Positions 3,088 through 35,292 of a stretch of 40,861 nt of DNA are shown here, in pieces. The stretch lies in the IMG/VR virus record IMGVR_UViG_2541047778_000015; one strand, given 5' to 3'. The translations under genes and the position numbers were made by a program. The notes under the pieces were generated by a model that was not told where the DNA came from, searched no databases, and worked only from the letters and a program-made list of their open reading frames with translations. Source of the DNA: a virus. Taxonomy: Duplodnaviria; Heunggongvirae; Uroviricota; Caudoviricetes. Every line of letters begins with the position of its first letter. Positions within the stretch are counted from its first letter, which is position 1.

Positions 3088-3368
3088 ACTTTCTCCTGTT
3101 TACTATCTATAAGCCAGTCAATTATTGATGACTAAACCCGCATAGTAAACCATATATGAATCATTATTGTTCCATATCATATATCTCAATAAAAGTACTA
3201 ATGATTTTACAGAACGAGCCAGCAGAGTGGGGGCAGTTGTACAGGAACCATAGACTTAATTTTGTATTTAATAATGCTATGGTGTAATAAACCTGAACAT
3301 GTATTTAAAATACGTACTGATTCATGATAGAATTCAAAGATAACTTTTCACCAACTCCGTTTTTGATA

Positions 3369-3395
3369 CCCGCAAAATATTGCGGGCTTTTTTTT
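3369..3395 (+). terminator. Plus-strand intrinsic terminator (hairpin plus T8) overlapping the tailspike stop codon
   Basis: CCCGCAA-aata-TTGCGGG followed by TTTTTTTT on the plus strand; the minus-strand reading lacks a U-tract, so it does not terminate the tailspike transcript. Confidence 0.6.
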
Positions 3396-6300
3396 AACGT
3401 TCTTCCAGAGACTGAATCCGCTCTTTTATCTTATCCATTTCTCTGCGCTGCCATGCTGCCTCGATATAGAATAAGAGATCAGGTCTGACCCCCCATCTAG
3501 ATCCTGCTGGCGTTATTTCAACGCGCTCAATGATGTCTTCCATTACCATCACTGGATTATCATCCTCATCAACAATGATGCTCCCGTCATTATCAGTCAG
3601 CGGAATTTCCCTTTGGCCAGTAATGACGTCATCATATACTGCGGGATAATCGTCATAGCAAAGAAAGGCATAGCGGCATGTTGTGCTTTCTTCTTCCATG
3701 AGTCCGTGAGAAATAAGAACATCACGAAGTTGCTGCGCGATTACACCATGATGTATCCTCGCCCCTTCTTCCCCCTTTATAGCGACAGCGTTCAGCCATT
3801 TATAAGCGATATACCTGACGTCACCCCAGGCATCCAGCAATGCTTCGTCAGGAGAGACCGGCTCTGTCTTTAATGTTCCGTCACTGGTAACCACAGGATT
3901 GGAGCCAAGATAAACTGTCGAGAACCTGTTTCCCGGACCACCAAGAGCATTTACATTATCAAGATAAGGTTTAACATCTCCGTTCTCAAAAAGATGTTCG
4001 AGTGCGTTATATACCGCGCGACGTGGAGTACTGCTTCTGGAACCATGCAACGTTATCATTGCACCATCTGCTGAAGACGTTGTTTCACCGCCGCTAACGA
4101 TTAATCTCTGAGCGGTAACATCATCAGACGGTACTTTCTTCGCAATAATGGCGTAATTACCCTCAAGTTTGACTTCCGCGCGAACTTGTCCTGATGTACC
4201 TGCATGGACAGTCAGTGACTGGACGGCAACATCATCTGTGAAATCAACGGGTACAGGAACCGTCCTCACGCCTGACGTCGACATAAAAGTAGGAAGCGTT
4301 CTGTTAGGAGTGGCTCCGTAGACAAAATCCCTTGAAACAAATTCTTCCTGTTTAATTTTCACCCTGAAACAATACAAATCAGCCGGGTGACCATCGTGAA
4401 CATAAGGATATTTTCTGTTGTTATCCCCTATGCTCCATGGGTTTAGAAAGTCTTCCCCACCGAAAATGTAGTACAGCCAGTTGTCTTTGATACAAACTGA
4501 ACCAACACCAACCGCAGAGTTAACTATTCCGCCCTGATAAATCTGATCAGTAACATTAACCCACTCTACATTATCCAGACTCCACTCATTGACGTTAACT
4601 CTGGTCATAAATGTTCTTGGATAATTTCCTGCATAACGGTTATCAGGTTCTCCTCCTTCCCACTCACCAAATGCGCGCTCACTGCCAAAAATAATCAGCT
4701 CATCGCCAACTTTGGCAAAAGGAAGGTTTGAGTGATGAACATTATTTGGGAAGCGAAGAGAATTCCATGATGTACCTAAATCAGAGCTTCTGTGCAATGA
4801 ACTACCGGGTTGAGTACTTAATGTCCCCCTGGTCGTCAGATACAGAATGCCATCATAATATTTTACACATGGCTCAGATGCATTCGCCTCATATTCTGCA
4901 GGTATGCGTCTGCGAACAAAGCTACCAGGAGAACCGAAAGCATCAGAGAAATAGAGTATCCCAAGCTCGCGTGGACCAATATCACCATTATGGTAGCCAA
5001 CAGCAAAACTGTTATCGCTAATCGTCGCAAAACTGTGAATCTCAGTAACAGGAGTGCTTCCGTCAACAAAAGAAGGAATAGTTCCAAGACTGGTTTTTCT
5101 CCATGGTGACGAGTGAAATGATGTACCAAAACTCCAGTATCTACCCTCGTTATTCTGATCCACATCCTGGGTATTTTGCGTCGTAACTGTAAAAGTATTT
5201 TTATCAATAACAGTAGTCACCGTCATATTCCCGGTAACACCTGTAACACCAGAGTTTGAGAAGTTGACAAAATCACCAGCAAATAATCCGTGATCAGTAA
5301 TGCGAATATAAGCGACTTGCTGATTTGCTGCTTTCGTTATACCACCATAAACGCGAAGGCTGCGACTCATTGGGCGATCCCACAACTCTGCAACCTGCAG
5401 TTTATTTCCGCTCACGGTCCGCGTCTCAATTACAGCAAAAAGGCGATTTCTGACAACCCCCATACTCATGCAGTGATAGTTAACTGTGGGATAGTTTTCA
5501 TGTAAATCTGTAAGCCATTCCGGCGTTGTCCAGGTCTTCCCGTCATCTCCTGAGCGAACCCATGCAACATGGAGGTTATTTACACCATGGCGGTCTCCAG
5601 CCATAAAAGGCGCATAGATGACATTGTCATATACAAACGTTTTATCCTGCGTCCAGGCGTTGTACCACGGTGTATCTGTAATTTTAAATAACTCTCCCTG
5701 GATAAAATCTTCAGAAGCATAAAAAAGAGGCTGACCCGGTATTCTCTCAAATAAAAAACGAGCATTTTTAAATCGGCTGACATCCGGAAGAGTTGATACT
5801 TTAAAAGTAAGCCCTAATCCGTCAATTTTATAACCTGGAGATGAGGCTTCAAGGCACGCGCTTATTGCAGTGGAATCGTCATTTATACCATCACCAACAG
5901 CTCCAAAATCTTTGGGGCTAATAGCATCACGCATTTTATCCTGGAACGTTCGGTACACAGCCCCAGAACCATACTGAATAAACCAACCAAAACCACCAAC
6001 AACCCCGGCGATTGCAGCATCGACATAATTACGCATTGAGCGATTATTTACAGCGTCCTGTTCAAGTGATGGATCTGCAAGGTTAGAAATTTTGTTTTGC
6101 TTTGCATCGTAATATTTTGCAAGCAAAGATGGTTTCATCAATGCACGTCTGAACCACCCAAAACATTGCTGGATCAGCATCGTCAGGTAGTCAAAAGCAT
6201 CTTCATGCACTTCGGGGAAAAATTTTCCCTGATTGCGAAGGTCTGTCTCCTGCACTACATCAAGCACACGATCTATCGTAATTCGCCATCCAGCAGCAAG

Positions 6301-6616: not shown

Positions 6617-6633
6617 ATTACCTTTCGGGTAAT
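6617..6633. promoter_or_regulatory. Operator-like site ATTACC-tttcg-GGTAAT
   Basis: 17-bp palindrome of the recurring family; intergenic, between the tailspike start and the LexA box. Confidence 0.5.
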
Positions 6634-6669: not shown

Positions 6670-6689
6670 TACTGTATAAATATACAGTT
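6670..6689. promoter_or_regulatory. LexA (SOS) box
   Basis: TACTGTATAAATATACAGTT: CTGT-N8-ACAG with an AT-rich spacer, close to the consensus TACTGTATATATATACAGTA; lies 20 bp upstream of the 6709 start and overlaps a TATAAAT -10-like hexamer. Confidence 0.7.
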
Positions 6690-7845: not shown

Positions 7846-7960
7846 TTTACATCGCACTCCTCTTGTGCCATAGTAATCGGGCACTGGCAAAATCCAGTGC
7901 CGGGATTGGTCTCCCGGATTACTACAGAGGCACATATGCCGCATAAGCGGTTTTTTTATG
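7838..7960 (+). ncRNA. Candidate structured small RNA or leader/attenuator upstream of the Bro-N antirepressor
   Basis: Outer helix AGTAATC/GATTACT encloses hairpins GGCACTGG-caaaat-CCAGTGCC and GGGA-ttggtc-TCCC; followed by GCCGC-ataa-GCGG plus T7. Confidence 0.4.
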
Positions 7961-8111
7961 TGTAAAGCGCACCTATTCTATGGTGGGCTGTGTGGGGGCA
8001 CCGAAAGGTGCGCCGGGTTCCTTTGTAGCCGGTAAGACCAACTCTGCACAGTTCACCACCATCTGATTGGTCTCAGCGGTGGTGATTAACCTAACTACAA
8101 AGGTGATCGCC

Positions 8112-8804
8112 ATGAATACCAAACCTTCCATCTTTTCCTTTGAGTCATCCTGCCAGATCCGTATGTTCATGATTGACGGAGAACCTTGGTTTGTCACCAA
8201 AGATGTGTGCAATGCTTTGAATATTGATGTTACACAAGCGAGAAAACTTGATAAAAAAGGCTGGAACAAAAAGGGGCTGTATTCAATACAGACCCCTGGT
8301 GGAATACAAGAACTATCCATCGTTTCAGAATCAGGTCTCTACATCCTTATTCTGCGTTGCAAAGAGGCAATGACTGAGGGAACGAGAGCATTCAGATTTC
8401 TTGAATGGGTTACAGGTGAGGTTCTTCCTCAGATCCGCCGCACCGGAAGTTACATTAAAAACTCGCTCCCGCAGGAAGAACGCATAAAGATGGTTGCCGA
8501 CCAGGTAGCCAACGCCACAGCATCAGCAGTGATGCAGGCAATGAAGATAGAGAACAAAACCTACAGTGCCCCACTGAAGCCCGGCTACCGCAGCCTGATT
8601 CATTCTCCGTCTGGTGTTCTCGGCCTGACGGAGAACTCATTGCTTATGAATCTGCTAAACCAGTTACAGGAAGACGGGCACGACGTATCGGGCGCGGCGG
8701 CGGAGCTGACCACCATGTTCTGCTACATCGTCGGTGTGAGCAAATGCCTGCGTGATATCCAGACCCACGCGGAGTACATCAACGACAAGGCAGGGTTCTT
8801 CTGA
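8112..8804 (+). CDS. Antirepressor with Bro-N/KilA-N-type N-domain and shared C-terminal module
   Basis: Start at MNTKPSIFSF (ATG 8112); the N-terminal segment IRMFMIDGEPWFVTKDVCNALNI is Bro-N-like; the last 77 aa are identical to the C-terminus of the 9911..10849 product. Confidence 0.7.
   Translation: MNTKPSIFSFESSCQIRMFMIDGEPWFVTKDVCNALNIDVTQARKLDKKGWNKKGLYSIQTPGGIQELSIVSESGLYILILRCKEAMTEGTRAFRFLEWVTGEVLPQIRRTGSYIKNSLPQEERIKMVADQVANATASAVMQAMKIENKTYSAPLKPGYRSLIHSPSGVLGLTENSLLMNLLNQLQEDGHDVSGAAAELTTMFCYIVGVSKCLRDIQTHAEYINDKAGFF
8571..8804 (+). repeat. Inverted-repeat copy A (codes the shared 77-aa C-terminal module)
   Basis: Reverse complement matches 9911..10144 with about a dozen single-base differences by hand alignment, all synonymous. 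Confidence 0.8.
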
Positions 8805-8944: not shown

Positions 8945-9577
8945 ATGAAAACAAATACAACAAGAAAAGCGATGCCATACATTATCCCAGAAGCAGATTT
9001 CGACAGAAAACTGAACATGTCTGAGAAGAACACTAGTCACACCGAAAGCTACTTAGCGAAAGGTGTGGTTGATTTCGTTCTTCCGGGATTCACAACACCT
9101 TATGGTTATCGCCTTGTAAAATCTTGTAATGGCGATCATTACAGAATGATTACTACCAGCGATACTCCAGAAACGGTGTATGCGGTTAAGTTAATCTTTC
9201 GGGAAGATATCGTCGAAGCTAAAAGAACATGTACGCAGATCATGGTATGGCGTACGCCTAATGTTATTCATGACCGTGCTGTTCATGGTTTGCCTCAGAT
9301 TTTTTTTCAGTTCTTTCTAGAGCAATATGCGATCGTTGTATCTGATGAGCAACAAACAATCGATGGGAGAAGATTCTGGGAAAGAATGATTTCTTGGGCT
9401 ATAAACACCCCGGGATATAATGTATACGTTTCAGATGGCTCTGAAGAAGATAGACCTCTTAGCTTCATGACATCATGGGATGATTTCTATAGCCAGTGGG
9501 CTGATTTCTGTTGGGGCAGTGATAAAGATGTGCATACCCACAGACTACTGGTTATAAGCAAAGATAAACTGCATTAA
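8945..9577 (+). CDS. Hypothetical protein, accessory cargo
   Basis: 210-aa ORF with its own promoter-like region and downstream terminator; no family recognised. Confidence 0.55.
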   Translation: MKTNTTRKAMPYIIPEADFDRKLNMSEKNTSHTESYLAKGVVDFVLPGFTTPYGYRLVKSCNGDHYRMITTSDTPETVYAVKLIFREDIVEAKRTCTQIMVWRTPNVIHDRAVHGLPQIFFQFFLEQYAIVVSDEQQTIDGRRFWERMISWAINTPGYNVYVSDGSEEDRPLSFMTSWDDFYSQWADFCWGSDKDVHTHRLLVISKDKLH

Positions 9578-10849: not shown

Positions 10850-10898
10850 GTCGTTAATTCCTATACGTAGTTTTACGATACTGAAGCCCTGACGGTCT

Positions 10899-10912
10899 GG
10901 CCACCGTGGGGC
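10899..10912. promoter_or_regulatory. Mnt-operator-like near-palindrome (GGCCACCGTGGGGC)
   Basis: Contains CCACGGTGG on the opposite strand, the core I recall from the P22 mnt operator; second copy at 11104..11118. Confidence 0.4.
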
Positions 10913-10921
10913 TTCGCTGTT

Positions 10922-24738: not shown

Positions 24739-25031
24739 TCCTGTTCACTGGCCTCTTTGGCCATCTTCAAATACTGTTCAGGGCAATGCGCCATAACGCG
24801 CTGAAACAGTTCCAGCGCCAGATTGCGTTGCCCCTCATTAAATGCCATTGCCATAGCATCCATCGGAGAGATAGCGGAAAACACCCGGCCTTTCTCCAGC
24901 ACCGACCAGACAACGCGACGCCCCTGTTCACTGCTCATGACAAAGCGAATGTCATCAATTTCACGCTGCGCCATGTCACGTTGCTTACGGGCGTTTTCTT
25001 CTTTCAGTTGATCGTCTTCGTAATCTGTCAT
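24735..25031 (-). CDS. Hypothetical head morphogenesis protein
   Basis: 98 aa; start and stop overlap the neighbouring genes. Confidence 0.5.
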   Translation of the reverse strand: MTDYEDDQLKEENARKQRDMAQREIDDIRFVMSSEQGRRVVWSVLEKGRVFSAISPMDAMAMAFNEGQRNLALELFQRVMAHCPEQYLKMAKEASEQE

Positions 25032-26707
25032 TGTGATTGCCCACCCTGACCACTAACTGCATTCGCCATAGCTGACAAAACACTCGGATCCGAAGTTTTA
25101 GCTTCACTTAGCGTCTTGGCACCCTGTGCCGCCGCCATCCCCATCGCCATCATTTGTTGCTGCTGTTGTTGCTGTGCCCGTTGCTGGCGAGCCTGCTCAA
25201 CCTGTTCCTGCGGAACAATGACGGTTGGAGACACTCCGGACATATCAGCGAATGCATCGATCGCCTGATCAACGTTGAGTTTGTCGAGAGCTTCTGGTTT
25301 CGCTTGCGCAAGTTGACCAATGAAGTTAACCGTGGACGCCAGACTGGACAGGCCGATAGACTTCTGCGCCTGAGCCATGACGGAAATGTATTCGACCTTC
25401 AGGGGCATGCCTTCCATCGCGTCAGGCGGTGGCGGCAGCATGTTTTTACGCACCATCATCGAGAAAGAGCGATCAATGAGAGGATTAAGACATTCGTCGT
25501 TCAGGCGCTCCAGAACCGGCCCCAACATCAGAAGTTTTTCTTCTTTCATTTCGATCACCGCTTCCACAGGCATCGAGCGGGTATTGATGTTCTGCAACAT
25601 CATGAACAGATCGACAAAGTAGGCGCTGTTAATGATTTGACGAGTGTCCTGAATGTCTGCCACCAAATCTGCTGTACTGGGGTTAACCAGATAAGCAGGC
25701 CTGAAACCATCCTGACCAGTAATCTGATCGATATACGTGATGTCGCCAGGAAGAAGGGAGGCGCGCTGATTCTTGAGGGAAGTCGGAGCAACCATCGGCG
25801 GATTGGTGGCTTTATCAATCAACTGCGACTTGCGCTTCTGGAGAAGCTGCAATGCCTTAACAGGTCCAAGCGCCAGCATACCCGGGCATGATGATCCATA
25901 AACATCTTCGCCGTTAACTTCCCAGCGCGGAGCCATAATTGGAAACTCATCGAATCCGGACTCACGCAACAACTTGTCGTTATCGCCACCAACCTCGTAA
26001 TAAACCGATTTGAATGGCTTGTTCTTGCTATCCAGCTTCGATGTATCGCGGTCAATGTTCGGGTAAACCGAATGCATCACTTCAATCCACTTCTCGTAGG
26101 TGCCGCTTTCCCACATGCTTTTTACGGATTCGCTGACGTTATTTAGCCCGAACTCCTGAACAAGCTGACGAACAGTCATAGAGAACTTGCGAAAACAGGT
26201 GTCCACACTGCCACGAGGTGAGTTAGCCAGGTAGTAACTGCCTATCGGGAATGGCATTGTGCGAATGATGTCCTCGTCATCCTCCAGCACTGCCATTGCA
26301 CCAGTGCTGTATGTGCCGAGGCTTCCGTATAACTGCGGCAGCGACTGATAGAGATTCGACTTATTGAACATATCGTTCATGCGGTTCTGCACCGCCTCAA
26401 GCCACAACTTAACAGGGCCATAATCCATCATTTCAGGATCTGGCGTAGCCAGGCGAAACCACGGACGCGCGGGGCTTGTGATGCCTGACATCATGCCGCT
26501 GGCGAGAGTGCGCGCCGCCATAGTCCCGGTCGAATCAATAATGCGTGTATTGCGTCGATCGTTACGGTTGACCTCAGAAGTCAGAAAGCGGGAACCACGC
26601 GGGTTGATGTAATCACTCAACTCGCGCCAGTGCGGCTCGAACGACTGACGCTCGCTTTCAAGTTGTGCGAACTGTTTGTTCAATCGCTCTTTAGTTGTTT
26701 CCGCCAT
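25028..26707 (-). CDS. Portal protein
   Basis: 559 aa; position after the terminase; C-terminal Gln/Ala-rich tail. Confidence 0.75.
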   Translation of the reverse strand: MAETTKERLNKQFAQLESERQSFEPHWRELSDYINPRGSRFLTSEVNRNDRRNTRIIDSTGTMAARTLASGMMSGITSPARPWFRLATPDPEMMDYGPVKLWLEAVQNRMNDMFNKSNLYQSLPQLYGSLGTYSTGAMAVLEDDEDIIRTMPFPIGSYYLANSPRGSVDTCFRKFSMTVRQLVQEFGLNNVSESVKSMWESGTYEKWIEVMHSVYPNIDRDTSKLDSKNKPFKSVYYEVGGDNDKLLRESGFDEFPIMAPRWEVNGEDVYGSSCPGMLALGPVKALQLLQKRKSQLIDKATNPPMVAPTSLKNQRASLLPGDITYIDQITGQDGFRPAYLVNPSTADLVADIQDTRQIINSAYFVDLFMMLQNINTRSMPVEAVIEMKEEKLLMLGPVLERLNDECLNPLIDRSFSMMVRKNMLPPPPDAMEGMPLKVEYISVMAQAQKSIGLSSLASTVNFIGQLAQAKPEALDKLNVDQAIDAFADMSGVSPTVIVPQEQVEQARQQRAQQQQQQQMMAMGMAAAQGAKTLSEAKTSDPSVLSAMANAVSGQGGQSQ

Positions 26708-26928: not shown

Positions 26929-27017
26929 ATCAATGACTCCGTACGCAATTAAATTATTACCAATTTAACCACATATGATTTATTTATCGTAGATAGTTGA
27001 CATTTAACGCACGAATT

Positions 27018-27034
27018 ATTACCTTTTAGGTAAG
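27018..27034. promoter_or_regulatory. Operator-like site ATTACC-tttta-GGTAAG
   Basis: TTGACA hexamer at 26997..27002 immediately upstream. Confidence 0.45.
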
Positions 27035-27355
27035 CAAATGGTTCATTCCGGTTATTAACCTGACTGGCTTGTCGTTAAATTGAACAGGTGGAGTGAGCTT
27101 TTATTTTGAGCAGTACGGCGTATGGCACATGCGCCGATAGCGGTCTGGATACGTTTAAGGGGCACCCTCCCTTGCTCGGGCAAACGAACCAGGTAGCCGG
27201 AATGTGCAAGTCGAGCGGTTTTATTCCGCGCACGGGGATTCACCATCCCGGCGATTCGGTGTGACGCCTCGGAAGAGACGAGGGTACAACGATGAGAGCA
27301 TTTATGGAGCCGCGACAAAGTGTGGTGCCTTAACAGGCTAAGTGCTCTCAGCGTT

Positions 27356-27432
27356 GTGGCATTAGCTCAGTCGGACAGAGCAACCGCCTTCTAAGCGGTT
27401 GGTCGCAGGTTCGAATCCTGCATGCCACGCCA
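27356..27432 (+). tRNA. tRNA-Arg (anticodon UCU)
   Basis: Hand-folded cloverleaf: acceptor GTGGCAT/ATGCCAC, D-stem GCTC/GAGC, anticodon stem ACCGC/GCGGT with loop CTTCTAA, T-arm GCAGG-TTCGAAT-CCTGC, 3' CCA encoded. Confidence 0.8.
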
Positions 27433-27475
27433 GAATCACGCCTAAGGACCGTGATGCCAGAAGTTCCAGGTGCTT

Positions 27476-27518
27476 GGCGGTGATGGTTTCCCTTGAAGGA
27501 CTATCACCGCCCTTTTTA
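27476..27518 (+). terminator. Hairpin plus T-run downstream of the tRNA
   Basis: GGCGGTGAT ... ATCACCGCC (9-bp stem, long loop) followed by CTTTTT. Confidence 0.45.
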
Positions 27519-27547
27519 CAGCAGGACGCCATTGCGATGACTTCATG

Positions 27548-27563
27548 CTGTAAACCAGTACAG
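27548..27563. promoter_or_regulatory. Weak LexA-box-like element
   Basis: CTGT-aaaccagt-ACAG: correct spacing but the spacer is not AT-rich. Confidence 0.25.
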
Positions 27564-27635
27564 CCACGGAAGGCATAACTCATTGCTTCCAGTTCGCCCG
27601 GTTCGCAGGGCATTTTTTTAAGGTGAGATTAGACT

Positions 27636-28007
27636 ATGAGTGAAAAAGACATTGAATCTGAAATTCAGGCTAAAGGTTTAGCCGCGCCGCGCGTTACGCC
27701 AGACCATATCGAGAGCATTATTGCTCAGGAGGCATATTTCACAGCAGAAGATGGTGCCTTTGGCGTAGCCATAAAAGCGAAACATACTGGCGGAGAGGTA
27801 AACTACCAGCCGCACGAATCACTTTCTCTGCTGACGTTCTGCGTCCTGGTGCTGCGCAACGGCTTCACCGTCACCGGAGAGAGCGCCTGTGCAAGCCCGG
27901 AAAACTTTGATGCAGAAATTGGTCGGAAGATTGCCCGACAGAATGCTGTAAACAAAATCTGGATGCTTGAAGGTTACTTGCTGAAGCAGAAGTTAAGCGA
28001 GCAATAA
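27636..28007 (+). CDS. Hypothetical protein (moron, opposite strand to the virion operon)
   Basis: 123-aa ORF preceded by AGGTGAG RBS; no family recognised. Confidence 0.55.
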   Translation: MSEKDIESEIQAKGLAAPRVTPDHIESIIAQEAYFTAEDGAFGVAIKAKHTGGEVNYQPHESLSLLTFCVLVLRNGFTVTGESACASPENFDAEIGRKIARQNAVNKIWMLEGYLLKQKLSEQ

Positions 28008-28097
28008 CACCGTGACATATCACAAACAGCCAGCCTATGAGCTGGCTTTGTTTTATCCTCATCAGAGGATATCAACAACATTATCCCCTCAAGCGGA

Positions 28098-29573
28098 TTA
28101 AGCATAGGGATCGTAATCTGTGATGGCCTTGCCTTGCTGGTTCTGCTGCCCGGGAATTCGCAGACGCTTAGACACAGGGAACGCAAACGTCAGCAGTAGC
28201 GCATCGCCTTTACCCGGTGAACGCCCAAGCCGCTCCTTGATATCTTCCTTCGGTTCGATAACGATTTTACCGTCCACTCGAACTTTGTACTCTGCCGCCG
28301 ACAGGTCGTCTGCTGTTTCCTGGTCATCCAGCATGCCGCCCAGCCTCAGCCATGTCTTGCATGAGTTGAACATCTCCCCACGCTTGTTGAGCATCTGCGG
28401 GTCAGTAGACGCGCCACCGAACGGAACAAGTTGCCATGTGCGCCCCCAACCGTCACCGATTGACTTCAGCCCGGTACCGTAACCGAAGTCGATGAACACC
28501 GCGTCAGCCTGATACTGGTCTTCAAAGTCAGCGATACGCTTCGCCATAATCAGATCGTCAGTGGTCTTGTTGCCGGTCCACAGCACCTTACTATGCAGCC
28601 CCTGCCGCAGGTATATCACAGCGTCATCAACGCCGGAGTATGCCGGGTCAACGCCGATTATCACCGGAGCATGTGCAACCTGCGCAGCGGTTACCACCCG
28701 TTTCATTGCCTCGTCAGTAAGTCCGGTAGGGATAAACTGCAATTCAGATGCATCCGGGAATATGCCGCGCACACGGATTTTAACGAAGTCGCTGTCTTCC
28801 CCGTAGTCATCAACCCATTTCTGCAACTGCTGTTTGTTAGTGCCTTCCACCGTCCGGCTGTCAATCTGCGCAGTTTTCCAGCGGTGTTTATATTTGCGGA
28901 AACATTCGCGGAAACGCCCGGTGTTACGTGTAGGGTTTCCGAACGCCACCCAGATAATCTCAGTGTCTTCGTCCGTAAGCGCACCCTCAGCAACTTCCCA
29001 CACCAGATCCGCAATGTTCGACGCTTCATCGAATACCACGATGATGCGTTTGCGCTCGTTGTGTAGTCCGGCGAATGCCTCAGTGTTGTGCTCAGACCAG
29101 GGGATTGCGTCAGCTCGCCACCGCTTGTCGTGCCCAGGATCATTGCTGTACATCGCGGTAGCGGTACAGGTAAACCAGTCTTTCGTGATAGCAAGGTTCG
29201 ACCACTTGATAATTTCCGGCCAGGTCTTCGTTCGTAGCTGGTTGTCGGTGTTGGCGGTCACCACGACCTTACAATCCTCGCAAGTGGACATGCCCCAGTT
29301 GATCAGCATTGAGATGAATGCGGATTTACCAATACCGTGACCAGAAGCGCGTGCCAGCATAAGCGGCTGATAGCGCGTCGCTGGATTCTGCAGGTGATCA
29401 CGTATCTCTCGGAACGCATCAGCCTGCCACTGACGTGGGCCGGTAGCATGTGCCAGTTCAGTCCCTTCTTCCCCCCACGGGAACGCATAGAGGGCATAGC
29501 CAAGCGGATCGTGAGTGAACCCTGCAATATCCTCGATCAACTGCTCTTCAGGAGATAACGCTGTATCTGTCAC
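28098..29573 (-). CDS. Terminase large subunit
   Basis: 491 aa; Walker A-like ASGHGIGKS; acidic nuclease-region motifs in the C-terminal half. Confidence 0.85.
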   Translation of the reverse strand: MTDTALSPEEQLIEDIAGFTHDPLGYALYAFPWGEEGTELAHATGPRQWQADAFREIRDHLQNPATRYQPLMLARASGHGIGKSAFISMLINWGMSTCEDCKVVVTANTDNQLRTKTWPEIIKWSNLAITKDWFTCTATAMYSNDPGHDKRWRADAIPWSEHNTEAFAGLHNERKRIIVVFDEASNIADLVWEVAEGALTDEDTEIIWVAFGNPTRNTGRFRECFRKYKHRWKTAQIDSRTVEGTNKQQLQKWVDDYGEDSDFVKIRVRGIFPDASELQFIPTGLTDEAMKRVVTAAQVAHAPVIIGVDPAYSGVDDAVIYLRQGLHSKVLWTGNKTTDDLIMAKRIADFEDQYQADAVFIDFGYGTGLKSIGDGWGRTWQLVPFGGASTDPQMLNKRGEMFNSCKTWLRLGGMLDDQETADDLSAAEYKVRVDGKIVIEPKEDIKERLGRSPGKGDALLLTFAFPVSKRLRIPGQQNQQGKAITDYDPYA

Positions 29574-34707: not shown

Positions 34708-35292
34708 ATGAAAAGTATCCAGGACGTCCGCAGGCAAAATCTCAACGACTTGATCGACCGTGAATTCAATGGTGTTCAGACGCGGATGGCAGAAAAACTT
34801 GGAACTCAGGCAAATCTGGTAAACCGCTGGGCTCTTGGCAAGAAGGTTATCGGCGACCAGGTTGCGCGAAAAATTGAAGCTGCCGCCAATAAACCCCGTA
34901 ACTGGCTTGATATCGATCGCTCGCTTTCTCAGGAAGGTTTTCAGCCTGTCGGCCCAAGCGACATTGGTCAGCTGGCGGCTCACAACCTGGAACGCTGGAT
35001 GAGCGAAAGCCGCGACCTTTCAACACAGGGAAAACTTCACCGCGCATCCGGCGTCGCCCAGGTGACAATCAGCCGCCTGTTAAACAATGAGGTCAGCGTT
35101 TCCATTTCCACCCTGGAGAATGTTGCATCCGCATTCGGGCGTCACGGCTATGAATTACTGATTCACCCGCACGACCCTGCGACTATCAACTATGACCGCT
35201 CGCGCTACGCATTGTTACCCGAAACCGAGAAAGCAAAGATCGAAAGTTACATTGAATTTGTCATCAACCAGAACGAAAAAAACAAACAATAA
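34708..35292 (+). CDS. Prophage repressor with two HTH-like regions and no S24 autocleavage domain
   Basis: 194 aa; HTH-like segments near residues 24-46 and 110-145; no Ala-Gly / Ser-Lys peptidase region seen; divergent from cro. Confidence 0.65.
   Translation: MKSIQDVRRQNLNDLIDREFNGVQTRMAEKLGTQANLVNRWALGKKVIGDQVARKIEAAANKPRNWLDIDRSLSQEGFQPVGPSDIGQLAAHNLERWMSESRDLSTQGKLHRASGVAQVTISRLLNNEVSVSISTLENVASAFGRHGYELLIHPHDPATINYDRSRYALLPETEKAKIESYIEFVINQNEKNKQ

Follow-up and report, generated by a model that had tools for sequence, protein, structure and literature searches.

A strand-specific, pseudoknotted RNA module upstream of a tRNA-Arg(UCU) gene is common to unrelated temperate phages

The cassette between the portal and large terminase genes

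The DNA considered here, a stretch of 40,861 nucleotides (nt) taken from IMG/VR virus record IMGVR_UViG_2541047778_000015 and referred to in the following as the window, corresponds to a phiV10/epsilon15-like (Uetakevirus) prophage. Between its portal gene (open reading frame (ORF) 25028-26707) and its large terminase gene (ORF 28098-29573), both located on the minus strand and both assigned from the ORF list and the phiV10 annotation, lies a region of 1.17 kb that is 97.9% identical to phiV10 and 99% identical to many Escherichia coli chromosomes. The plus strand of this region carries, in order, a TTGACA hexamer with an operator, a leader free of credible ORFs, a tRNA-Arg(UCU) gene, a terminator, a LexA-like motif and a gene encoding a protein of 123 amino acids (aa). 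All of these features had been listed in an original prediction made from the sequence, and all are present within at most one or two bases of the positions given there; the same prediction had interpreted them as a tRNA moron with a 320-nt, GC-rich non-coding leader. The tRNA and the 123-aa gene are ordinary, but the leader is not: it contains a conserved RNA, the core of which (27115..27283, plus strand) is the main subject of this report.

Within the leader (27035-27355), the longest ORFs encode 52 aa on the plus strand and 87 aa on the minus strand. Its description as GC-rich applies to the core, which has a GC content of 0.60, but not to the leader as a whole (0.53; window, 0.48). Three consecutive plus-strand elements can be distinguished: a 5' segment with a GC content of 0.41 (27034..27114), delimited by sequence comparison; the core, defined by a covariance model, covariation and alignment; and a second domain, called Y (27284..27356), recognized from compensatory changes and from the minimum-free-energy (MFE) fold. 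The region as a whole is best explained as an early-expressed accessory cassette, the transcription of which is opposed to that of the virion genes.

A conserved RNA core and its neighbors

The secondary structure of the core, which comprises six helices, was derived by hand from an alignment of 52 representatives (alignment A1), and is described here with plus-strand coordinates of the window. Helix P1 pairs 27116-27120 with 27132-27136, and P2 (27144-27148/27189-27193) closes a variable hairpin whose tip carries a conserved pyrimidine motif, YCCUU, resembling the anti-Shine-Dalgarno sequence. An invariant block of 19 nt, GGTAGCCGGAATGTGCAAG (27192-27210), is followed by another variable hairpin, P3 (~27210-27233), and by P4 (27235-27238/27246-27249), the loop of which contains a CACC sequence (27241-27244) that forms a pseudoknot with a downstream GGTG (27258-27261). 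P5 (27267-27271/27279-27283) concludes the core, which is extended to position 27356 by a further closing helix.

Considering the 29 pairs that were tested, 97.0% of the alignment cells form standard pairs, compared with 28-47% when the 3' partners are slid by one to three columns; changes on both sides occur in 12 of these pairs (102 cells), and none of 500 column shuffles equaled the observed values. The compensatory changes are distributed over five helices, one of which is the pseudoknot. In particular, one pair of P1 is G-C in 25 sequences, A-U in 24 and G-U in two, and one pair of P2 is C-G in 38 sequences and U-A in 13; P4 and P5 contain three covarying pairs each; and a pseudoknot pair that is C-G in 46 sequences is A-U in five others, which belong to at least three separate groups. 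Because many of the pairs are G-U, which would read as A-C on the other strand, the plus strand can be fixed as that of the RNA, and it is also the strand transcribed from the upstream promoters. A covariance model of the core, R1, recognizes a single copy in the window, with a score of 144.1 bits (E = 1.5e-45). Folding of the single sequence is only moderately better than that of shuffled controls (z -2.3 to -2.5), so that the evidence for an RNA is comparative, not thermodynamic.

A second pseudoknot is possible between a GCACAU sequence in the loop of P1 (27125-27130) and an AUGUGC sequence within the invariant block (27202-27207). Three directed variant scans yielded few variants of this pairing, none of them compensated: one change is compatible with a wobble pair (A to G) and two are disruptive (A to U and G to A). 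Because both sides hardly vary, the pairing is unproven.

No reading frame is free of stop codons in more than half of 51 diverse homologs, and the lengths of the core fall into all three classes modulo 3. The Infernal scan of 27035..27355 that had been suggested along with the original prediction matched none of the 4227 models of Rfam 15, either at gathering thresholds or at E <= 10, and conserved structure is established by covariation instead. The version of the element found in lambdoid phages, including domain Y and an element Z described below, is equally without an Rfam match, and in 17 related loci compared with Rfam only tRNA, C4, isrK and int-alpA were matched, all of them outside the core. 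Full-text literature searches with characteristic sequence strings and with keywords (epsilon15/phiV10, the P1 ban operon, structured phage RNAs) returned no description of the element. What had been taken for a leader is a self-contained, strand-specific and pseudoknotted RNA module of ~170-240 nt. The RNA family appears to be undescribed, and it sits where the early-leader RNAs nut and put sit, with a different, much larger fold and a far wider distribution.

This distribution extends well outside the Uetakevirus group. By megablast, positions 27115-27362 of the window are ~84% identical to sequences of the unrelated lambdoid phages mEp460, cdtI and 2H10, and a more sensitive search adds Stx2a- and Stx2c-converting phages as well as P1, P7 and other P1-like phages (79-81% over 27115-27277). 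Further copies are found in Klebsiella, Enterobacter and Salmonella phages and in a phage deposited as infecting Stenotrophomonas; identity between unrelated types of phage, P1 among them, ranges from 70 to 84%. The 19-nt block was invariant in all of the first 14 copies compared, and a scan of the GTDB species representatives with this 19-mer found 24 loci, 23 of them real. The latter belong to Escherichia, Citrobacter, Klebsiella, Kosakonia, Kluyvera, Enterobacter, Phytobacter, Buttiauxella, Pseudescherichia, 'Ca. Erwinia dacicola' and others, which are enterobacterial by record titles. At least 120 IMG/VR contigs carry the 19-mer, and the copies collected amount to 135 distinct sequences, which form 56 clusters at 93% identity. 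Among complete E. coli genomes, the core is present in 1839 of 5426 (34%), where it occupies 2470 places, 554 of which are on plasmids; among the matches listed for these genomes, RefSeq annotates no feature under the core. R1 finds exactly one copy per phage or locus and detects no second, PR-side copy in either the mEp460 genome or the window; BLAST likewise places the sequence once in each phage record. The module is common to unrelated temperate phages.

Two groups of matches call for separate mention. A 19-mer match on an Oscillospiraceae contig (L023) and variant matches in L162, L163 and L167 were rejected as chance occurrences, L023 and L162 also being without a match to the model. High-scoring copies are present on a contig binned as a Bacillota metagenome-assembled genome (L035) and in the phage deposited as infecting Stenotrophomonas (L013); all other copies came from enterobacterial genomes and phages of these, and the bin and host labels may be wrong. 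As for annotation, spurious-looking coding sequences (CDSs) overlie the RNA core or the tRNA-like element in mEp460 (mEp460_036 and, on the opposite strand, mEp460_037) and mEp390 (mEp390_036).

The sequences flanking the core are modular as well. Upstream, 27034-27114 resembles a degenerate remnant of a long hairpin, X, which is intact in Tyrion, PAT1, epsilon15 and ST512-KPC3phi13.3, and in which the depositors of the epsilon15 sequence marked an RNase III site. Downstream, P5 is followed in most copies by domain Y, a closing helix of 17 positions, 16 of them paired (27287-27303/27340-27356 in the window), which encloses a variable insert of tens to ~200 nt. This helix is maintained with compensatory changes in 31 sequence variants and is also found in the MFE fold of the window sequence by itself; its last base is G1 of the tRNA. 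An acceptor-like GTGG(T/C) follows Y in ~80 of the 94 unique loci of this class, belonging to a tRNA-Arg(UCU) in 23 loci and otherwise to a tRNA-like element, Z. The closing helix of Z pairs GUGGUG with CACCAC and is followed by AAC; the element further includes a hairpin GCGCA-GGCUGA-UGCGC, for which one locus has the covarying stem GCCCA/UGGGC, a hypervariable middle part of 30-150 nt and a second hairpin, GCCGG-AGAUCAGCR-CCGGY. The loop sequences CUGAU and AUCAG are complementary and would give Z a tRNA-like elbow. Located at 3241-3375 in mEp460 (L002) and present in 17 other variants, Z precedes the core in L019; it is matched neither by Rfam nor by ARAGORN. In PAT1 (L009, ~2710-2900) and mEp390 (L014, ~2595-2780), Y is replaced by another conserved 3' module, AUCAGCCAUUCACGYUAAGCAUC...GGGACUGGAAGAGUUACCACUUGGAGACGGUCC, which is probably structured.

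The P1 core is preceded, at a distance of 14 nt, by the end of a tRNA-Ile. Because a tRNA lies nearby in a minority of copies only, the RNA is not a tRNA leader; the 320-nt leader of the original prediction has to be replaced by an autonomous RNA module, most copies of which have no adjacent tRNA and to which the tRNA appears to be an exchangeable 3' neighbor. Since the tRNA and its mimic Z occupy the same slot, cleavage by RNase P at either of them would set the 3' end of an RNA consisting of core and Y.

A natural deletion affects this arrangement in epsilon15 (region 2550-2634), which keeps only the first part of the core (38 bits with R1). Alignment with SPN1S and the window places the ends of the deletion at the P2 tip and in the loop of T1, a hairpin downstream of the tRNA; the tRNA and domain Y are lost together with most of the core and the 5' arm of T1, and a second hairpin, T2, remains. 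In SPN1S both sites corresponding to the deletion junction share a 13-nt motif, UUCCCUUGAUGCU; in the window, the loop of T1 and the tip of P2 share the motif UUCCCUUGA, and it is at this motif that the epsilon15 deletion is joined. The joint loss of T1 and the core is compatible with a functional link between the two, without amounting to proof.

Promoters, tRNA and the downstream gene

The putative early promoter of the window (26997..27033, plus strand), recognized from its sequence and its conservation in relatives, consists of a -35 hexamer TTGACA (26997-27002), a spacer of 17 nt and a weak -10 hexamer TACCTT (27020-27025), which is overlapped by the operator palindrome TTACCTTTTAGGTAA (27019-27033). 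A strict consensus promoter scan rejects the 26997-27025 site, the -10 of which matches at 3/6 positions only; the TTGACA-17-TACCTT layout recurs in many relatives. With one mismatch allowed, the palindrome TTACC-N5-GGTAA is found at 15 sites in the window versus 0.49 expected, and these concentrate at regulatory regions, including both flanks of a helix-turn-helix (HTH) gene (34708-35292) and an isrK/C4 antirepressor-control region. The epsilon15 record carries, as depositors' annotation, a repressor site and an integration host factor (IHF) site at the position equivalent to the window promoter. Because the palindrome clusters 15-fold at phage regulatory regions and because of this repressor-site annotation, the unit is predicted to be under early repressor control, being repressed in the lysogen and switched on early. 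This bears on its designation as a moron. Like a moron, the unit has a promoter of its own (26997-27025) and terminator hairpins (27476-27511 and 28028-28047); a moron is also expressed during prophage repression, which, to judge from the operator sites, this unit would not be. The designation is doubtful, the promoter being overlapped by a palindrome that is the phage's own.

Elsewhere in the window, Rfam identifies isrK (7881-7957), directly followed by a C4 antisense RNA (7976-8063) and then by a Bro-N antirepressor-like ORF (8079-8804), as well as a sar RNA (10851-10918). Flanked by operator palindromes, isrK, C4, Bro-N and sar look like an RNA-controlled antirepressor region of the P1/P22 type; mEp460 and the Stx2a_1447 phage likewise have an isrK-C4 pair beside their antirepressor gene.

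In lambdoid phages the core lies 110-180 nt after ORFs of the same strand, and in all six cases tested, which represent at least four sequence types, these encode CI-type repressors (HTH and Peptidase_S24). The cI-type gene and the core are separated by a terminator and by a sigma-70-like promoter with operator-like palindromes, so that placement of the core in the cI transcript (the rex slot) was considered and rejected. Of 54 representatives, 34 have a promoter that agrees with the consensus at 9 or more of 12 positions, in most cases including a perfect TTGACA, compared with 22% of shuffles. The first base of the core follows the end of the -10 by 6-7 nt in five representative sequences, where the core would therefore begin at the transcription start itself. 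A PL-type promoter beside cI precedes the core in mEp460, cdtI, mEp390, BUCT708 and others; in P1, the core belongs to the C1-controlled ban operon, where it is flanked by trnI and ban. Outside the P1 group, the core is thus located downstream of a promoter of the same strand, which is operator-bearing in epsilon15-like phages and of the PL type beside cI in lambdoids. Lambda nutL and HK022 putL occupy this same position (PMC9378689). In mEp460 no N gene is annotated, and the first ORF of the PL operon, mEp460_035, has neither an arginine-rich motif nor a Pfam match. Directly after the core, a small hairpin and a canonical boxA, GCTCTTTAA, are found in three lineages (3/134 unique loci), boxA having been compared with the consensus (YGCUCUUUA-like) by eye and regular expression only.

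The tRNA assignment is confirmed by ARAGORN, which had been suggested as a check and which places a tRNA-Arg(TCT) at 27356-27432 (plus strand) with the anticodon tct at position 35, and by Rfam, where model RF00005 gives 73.3 bits (gathering score, 29). Its 3' end reads ...ATGCCAC-G-CCA, so that CCA is encoded, as had been claimed, and RefSeq E. coli genomes annotate the gene as tRNA-Arg. The phiV10 record (DQ126339) is without this tRNA-Arg and has a hypothetical CDS, PhiV10p04 (3433-3684), antisense to the tRNA (window 27362-27613, minus strand), which is probably spurious.

The codons AGA and AGG are used approximately two times and once, respectively, per 1000 codons in E. coli. In a crude set of 40 long ORFs, the corresponding values are 8.0 and 4.6; most of this usage falls to ORF 8945-9577 and to the tailspike, tail and injection genes, and hardly any AGA or AGG occurs in the genes for head, portal and terminase or in the 123-aa gene. 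The supply of rare codons invoked by the original prediction is a reasonable role for the tRNA. ORF 8945-9577 itself (210 aa, no Pfam match) uses AGA for nine of its 13 arginine codons, so that local reliance on the phage tRNA-Arg(UCU) is strongest here.

Two plus-strand hairpins separate the tRNA from the gene. T1, which the terminator scan reports as a terminator-like hairpin of 14 pairs (27476-27511) with the tail CTTTTTAC, is followed by CCCUUUUUACA in a feature that extends over 27476..27519. Its tail includes a poor boxA-like sequence, GCCCUUUUUACA, which is homologous to the tail GCUCUUUUUACA of the hairpin that comes after Z in the mEp460 group; this hairpin, with the tail GC(C/U)CUUUUUACA, is homologous to T1. 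T2, recognized from the sequence (27596..27619), consists of GCCCGG-UUCG-CAGGGC with one mismatch (27596-27611), then A and seven U (27612-27619), and relatives have a perfect GCCCAC-UUCG-GUGGGC followed by U7 in the same place. T2 directly abuts the ribosome-binding site AAGGTGAG (27620-27627, plus strand) of the 123-aa gene, any transcript of which must consequently read through T2.

The LexA-like motif between the two hairpins, CTGTAAACCAGTACAG (27548..27563), was found by a pattern search and agrees with the core consensus CTGT-N8-ACAG only, which occurs three times in the window versus ~0.6 expected. It is not conserved in epsilon15 or SPN1S, and the promoter scan detects no promoter around it. 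A textbook LexA box, CTGTATAAATATACAG (6672-6687), lies beside operator palindromes (6618-6632) and is far more convincing.

The opposite-strand gene of the original prediction (27636-28007, plus strand) is real, and its 123-aa product can now be assigned. It matches Pfam PF13876 over the complete profile (positions 1-82 of 82; E = 2.3e-35, 121.4 bits versus a cut-off of 27) and, weakly, PDB entry 9e4w, 'anti-CBASS 4 (Acb4)' (E = 0.007). PF13876 defines the Acb4 anti-CBASS sponge family (bioRxiv 10.1101/2024.12.30.630793), of which the protein is, by sequence, a member. A hairpin found by terminator scans of both strands (28028..28054) and annotated as a terminator in the phiV10 record forms a bidirectional boundary between the cassette and the large terminase gene. 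In Klebsiella phage ST512-KPC3phi13.3 (L011, 3011-3532), a Tad2-like (PF11195) gene occupies the same slot after RNA and tRNA; an int-alpA RNA motif is combined with a DUF551 gene in the cassette of Enterobacter phage Tyrion (L008, 3708-3772); and other relatives have different small genes in this position. The opposite-strand unit within the virion module is an exchangeable accessory slot with an anti-defense flavor and an early promoter, and it is this accessory, anti-defense character that explains a placement the original prediction had left unexplained.

Candidate functions and comparison with known systems

Tentatively, we favor a role of the core as a nut- or put-like RNA that acts on transcription elongation. 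According to this proposal, transcription from the repressor-controlled promoter would generate the structured RNA (27115-27356), then tRNA-Arg(UCU), T1 and T2, and finally the mRNA of the Acb4-family gene. RNase P, cutting at the 5' end of the tRNA or, in lambdoids, of the tRNA-like element, would define the 3' end of the RNA, which helix Y would protect after processing. The folded RNA would act co-transcriptionally on the elongation complex, in the manner of nut, put or rrn-leader RNAs, and RNA polymerase could thereby cross ~600 nt of untranslated leader as well as T1 and T2 to reach the anti-defense gene or, in lambdoids, the PL operon. In addition, the tail and injection genes, which are rich in AGA/AGG, may benefit from the decoding of AGA by the tRNA.

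Several observations weigh against this proposal. In three lambdoid-type loci, a simple scan of the interval from the element to the first genes found no convincing intrinsic terminator on the plus strand. The P1 core is at a distance of 2.4 kb from the ban promoter and of ~100 nt from ban, and no terminator intervenes. Each genome contains a single copy, with none after PR, whereas HK022 has both putL and putR, and the RNA resembles HK022 put neither in sequence nor in architecture. An RNA acting in trans by way of a host factor to which it binds would account just as well for the long invariant unpaired stretches, and processing by RNase P is suggested by geometry only. Finally, the core is dispensable for the growth of epsilon15, since the deletion phage is viable.

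The alternative that fares best, possible but somewhat doubtful, is that core and domain Y are cut from the early transcript, with RNase P acting at the 3' end, and function in trans, either through a conserved host protein or RNA that they would bind or titrate or as an anti-defense decoy or aptamer, the neighboring genes being co-passengers. It would account for the movement of the module between contexts as a unit with differing downstream genes, and for its restriction to one copy per genome. The flanking tRNA or tRNA-like sequences (tRNA-Ile upstream in P1, tRNA-Arg or the tRNA-like element downstream elsewhere) would be natural processing signals, and helix Y would shield the processed 3' end; the near invariance across genera of the 19-nt block and other unpaired stretches suggests a conserved ligand, and the cassette includes an anti-defense gene that is Acb4-like in the window and Tad2-like in the Klebsiella relative. 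Such a role is harder to reconcile with the fact that, outside the P1 group, the core is co-oriented with and close to a detected promoter, beginning at the start site in several lineages, as well as with the lack of an independent terminator directly after the core in most contexts and of a nameable target.

It is also conceivable, with no great confidence on our part, that the core represents a new class of phage regulatory RNA: a double-pseudoknotted molecule that would bind a conserved host machine (RNA polymerase with Nus factors, Rho or RNase E) or possibly an immune signaling molecule, would be the first RNA made after derepression in many temperate enterobacterial phages including P1, and would be delivered as a stable RNA by tRNA or tRNA-like processing.

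The remaining explanations are much less likely than action on elongation or in trans. An aptamer that, like a riboswitch, senses a metabolite or an immune signaling nucleotide and controls early or anti-defense genes is improbable: the RNA has, as aptamers do, a compact pseudoknotted fold with invariant joining regions, the core lies in a 5' leader, and terminator-like hairpins follow in the window, but no expression platform overlaps the core, which is separated from T1 by the tRNA or tRNA-like element, the downstream genes are unrelated between contexts (Acb4-like, Tad2-like, ban, DUF2303 and others without assignment), and no Rfam riboswitch family matches, even at E <= 10. That the segment is a plain 5' leader of a tRNA precursor, or a decaying remnant with functionless stems, is hardly tenable; its location directly upstream of the tRNA, the modest folding z-scores and the survival of epsilon15 without most of the core would agree with it, but most copies have no adjacent tRNA, 70-84% identity is retained across unrelated phage types including P1, five helices show compensatory changes and a third of complete E. 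coli genomes contain the core. A small-protein gene or a double-stranded DNA site (operator, pac site or origin), as the hypothetical CDSs annotated over the core might suggest (for example, mEp390_036 or the opposite-strand mEp460_037), is about equally unlikely, considering that each frame is interrupted in at least half of 51 representatives, that indels are not multiples of three, that variation in the stems is compensatory with many G-U pairs (A-C on the other strand), and that the position varies relative to terminase, replication and immunity genes.

If the core does act on elongation, temperate phages would have a second way of achieving early antitermination by means of an RNA, one that has no structural relationship to HK022 put and is far more widespread; if it acts in trans, it would be an abundant phage RNA made at the very start of induction or infection; and if it constitutes a new class, it would be a hitherto unrecognized, RNA-only early function with a reach comparable to that of N/nut. 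The core is spread through 34% of complete E. coli genomes, Stx2-converting phages, P1-type phage-plasmids, prophages of Klebsiella, Citrobacter, Enterobacter and Kosakonia, and Salmonella phages, and is currently invisible to annotation, several records overlaying it with spurious hypothetical CDSs. Because it marks an early-expressed cassette with Acb4-like and Tad2-like anti-defense genes, it could aid in finding further counter-defense genes. The interchange of tRNA and tRNA-like element at one position suggests, moreover, that some phage tRNAs double as RNA-processing signals.

Individual parts of the cassette have known counterparts. Phage tRNA-Arg(UCU) genes serving the rare codons AGA and AGG include argN and argO of Stx phages; as in those, the tRNA of the window is canonical and the phage genes are enriched in AGA/AGG, but here the tRNA is interchangeable with a tRNA-like element and may also serve as a processing signal. 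Similarly, the 123-aa protein resembles Acb4 in matching the full PF13876 profile and, weakly, Acb4 chain 9e4w, and differs from the Pfam profile by an N-terminal extension of ~20 residues.

RNAs that are matured by way of a tRNA or tRNA-like neighbor include P1 C4 and P4 CI, which depend on RNase P, the stable 'species 1 and 2' RNAs of the phage T4 tRNA cluster and, in eukaryotes, MALAT1-mascRNA. As in these systems, a structured RNA abuts a tRNA or tRNA-like element and is co-transcribed with phage tRNAs, with processing deduced in our case from geometry; the T4 species RNAs are, like the core, of unknown function. The core has no homology to C4, and the window has its own C4 and isrK elsewhere (7881-8063).

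The operons of rrn have a long untranslated leader in which modules resembling stable RNAs are combined with a tRNA, an organization similar to that of the window leader. With the nut and rrn antitermination signals, in which boxA, boxB and boxC are combined with Nus factors and, in lambda-type nut sites, an N protein binds the boxB hairpin, the core shares the position of nutL, the boxA that follows it in three lineages and the boxA-like tails of T1-type hairpins; it differs from them in being itself without a boxA, in that the window has only the poor boxA-like tail of T1, and in that no N-like arginine-rich protein was found.

Finally, comparison with HK022 put involves both clear differences and a shared setting. 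In addition to being dissimilar in sequence, with R1 finding no match in HK022, put is a cis-acting antiterminator RNA, independent of protein, of ~70 nt with two stems and a triplex, whereas the core measures 150-180 nt and has at least five helices and one or two pseudoknots; put occurs as an L/R pair and the core once per genome; and the core, whose activity is a prediction, is also present in podophages and in the P1 ban operon. Both are nevertheless folded and conserved RNAs located upstream of genes that are reached across terminators, and both would be the nascent RNA immediately after PL, beside the repressor gene, in lambdoid phages showing no N gene (PMC9378689).

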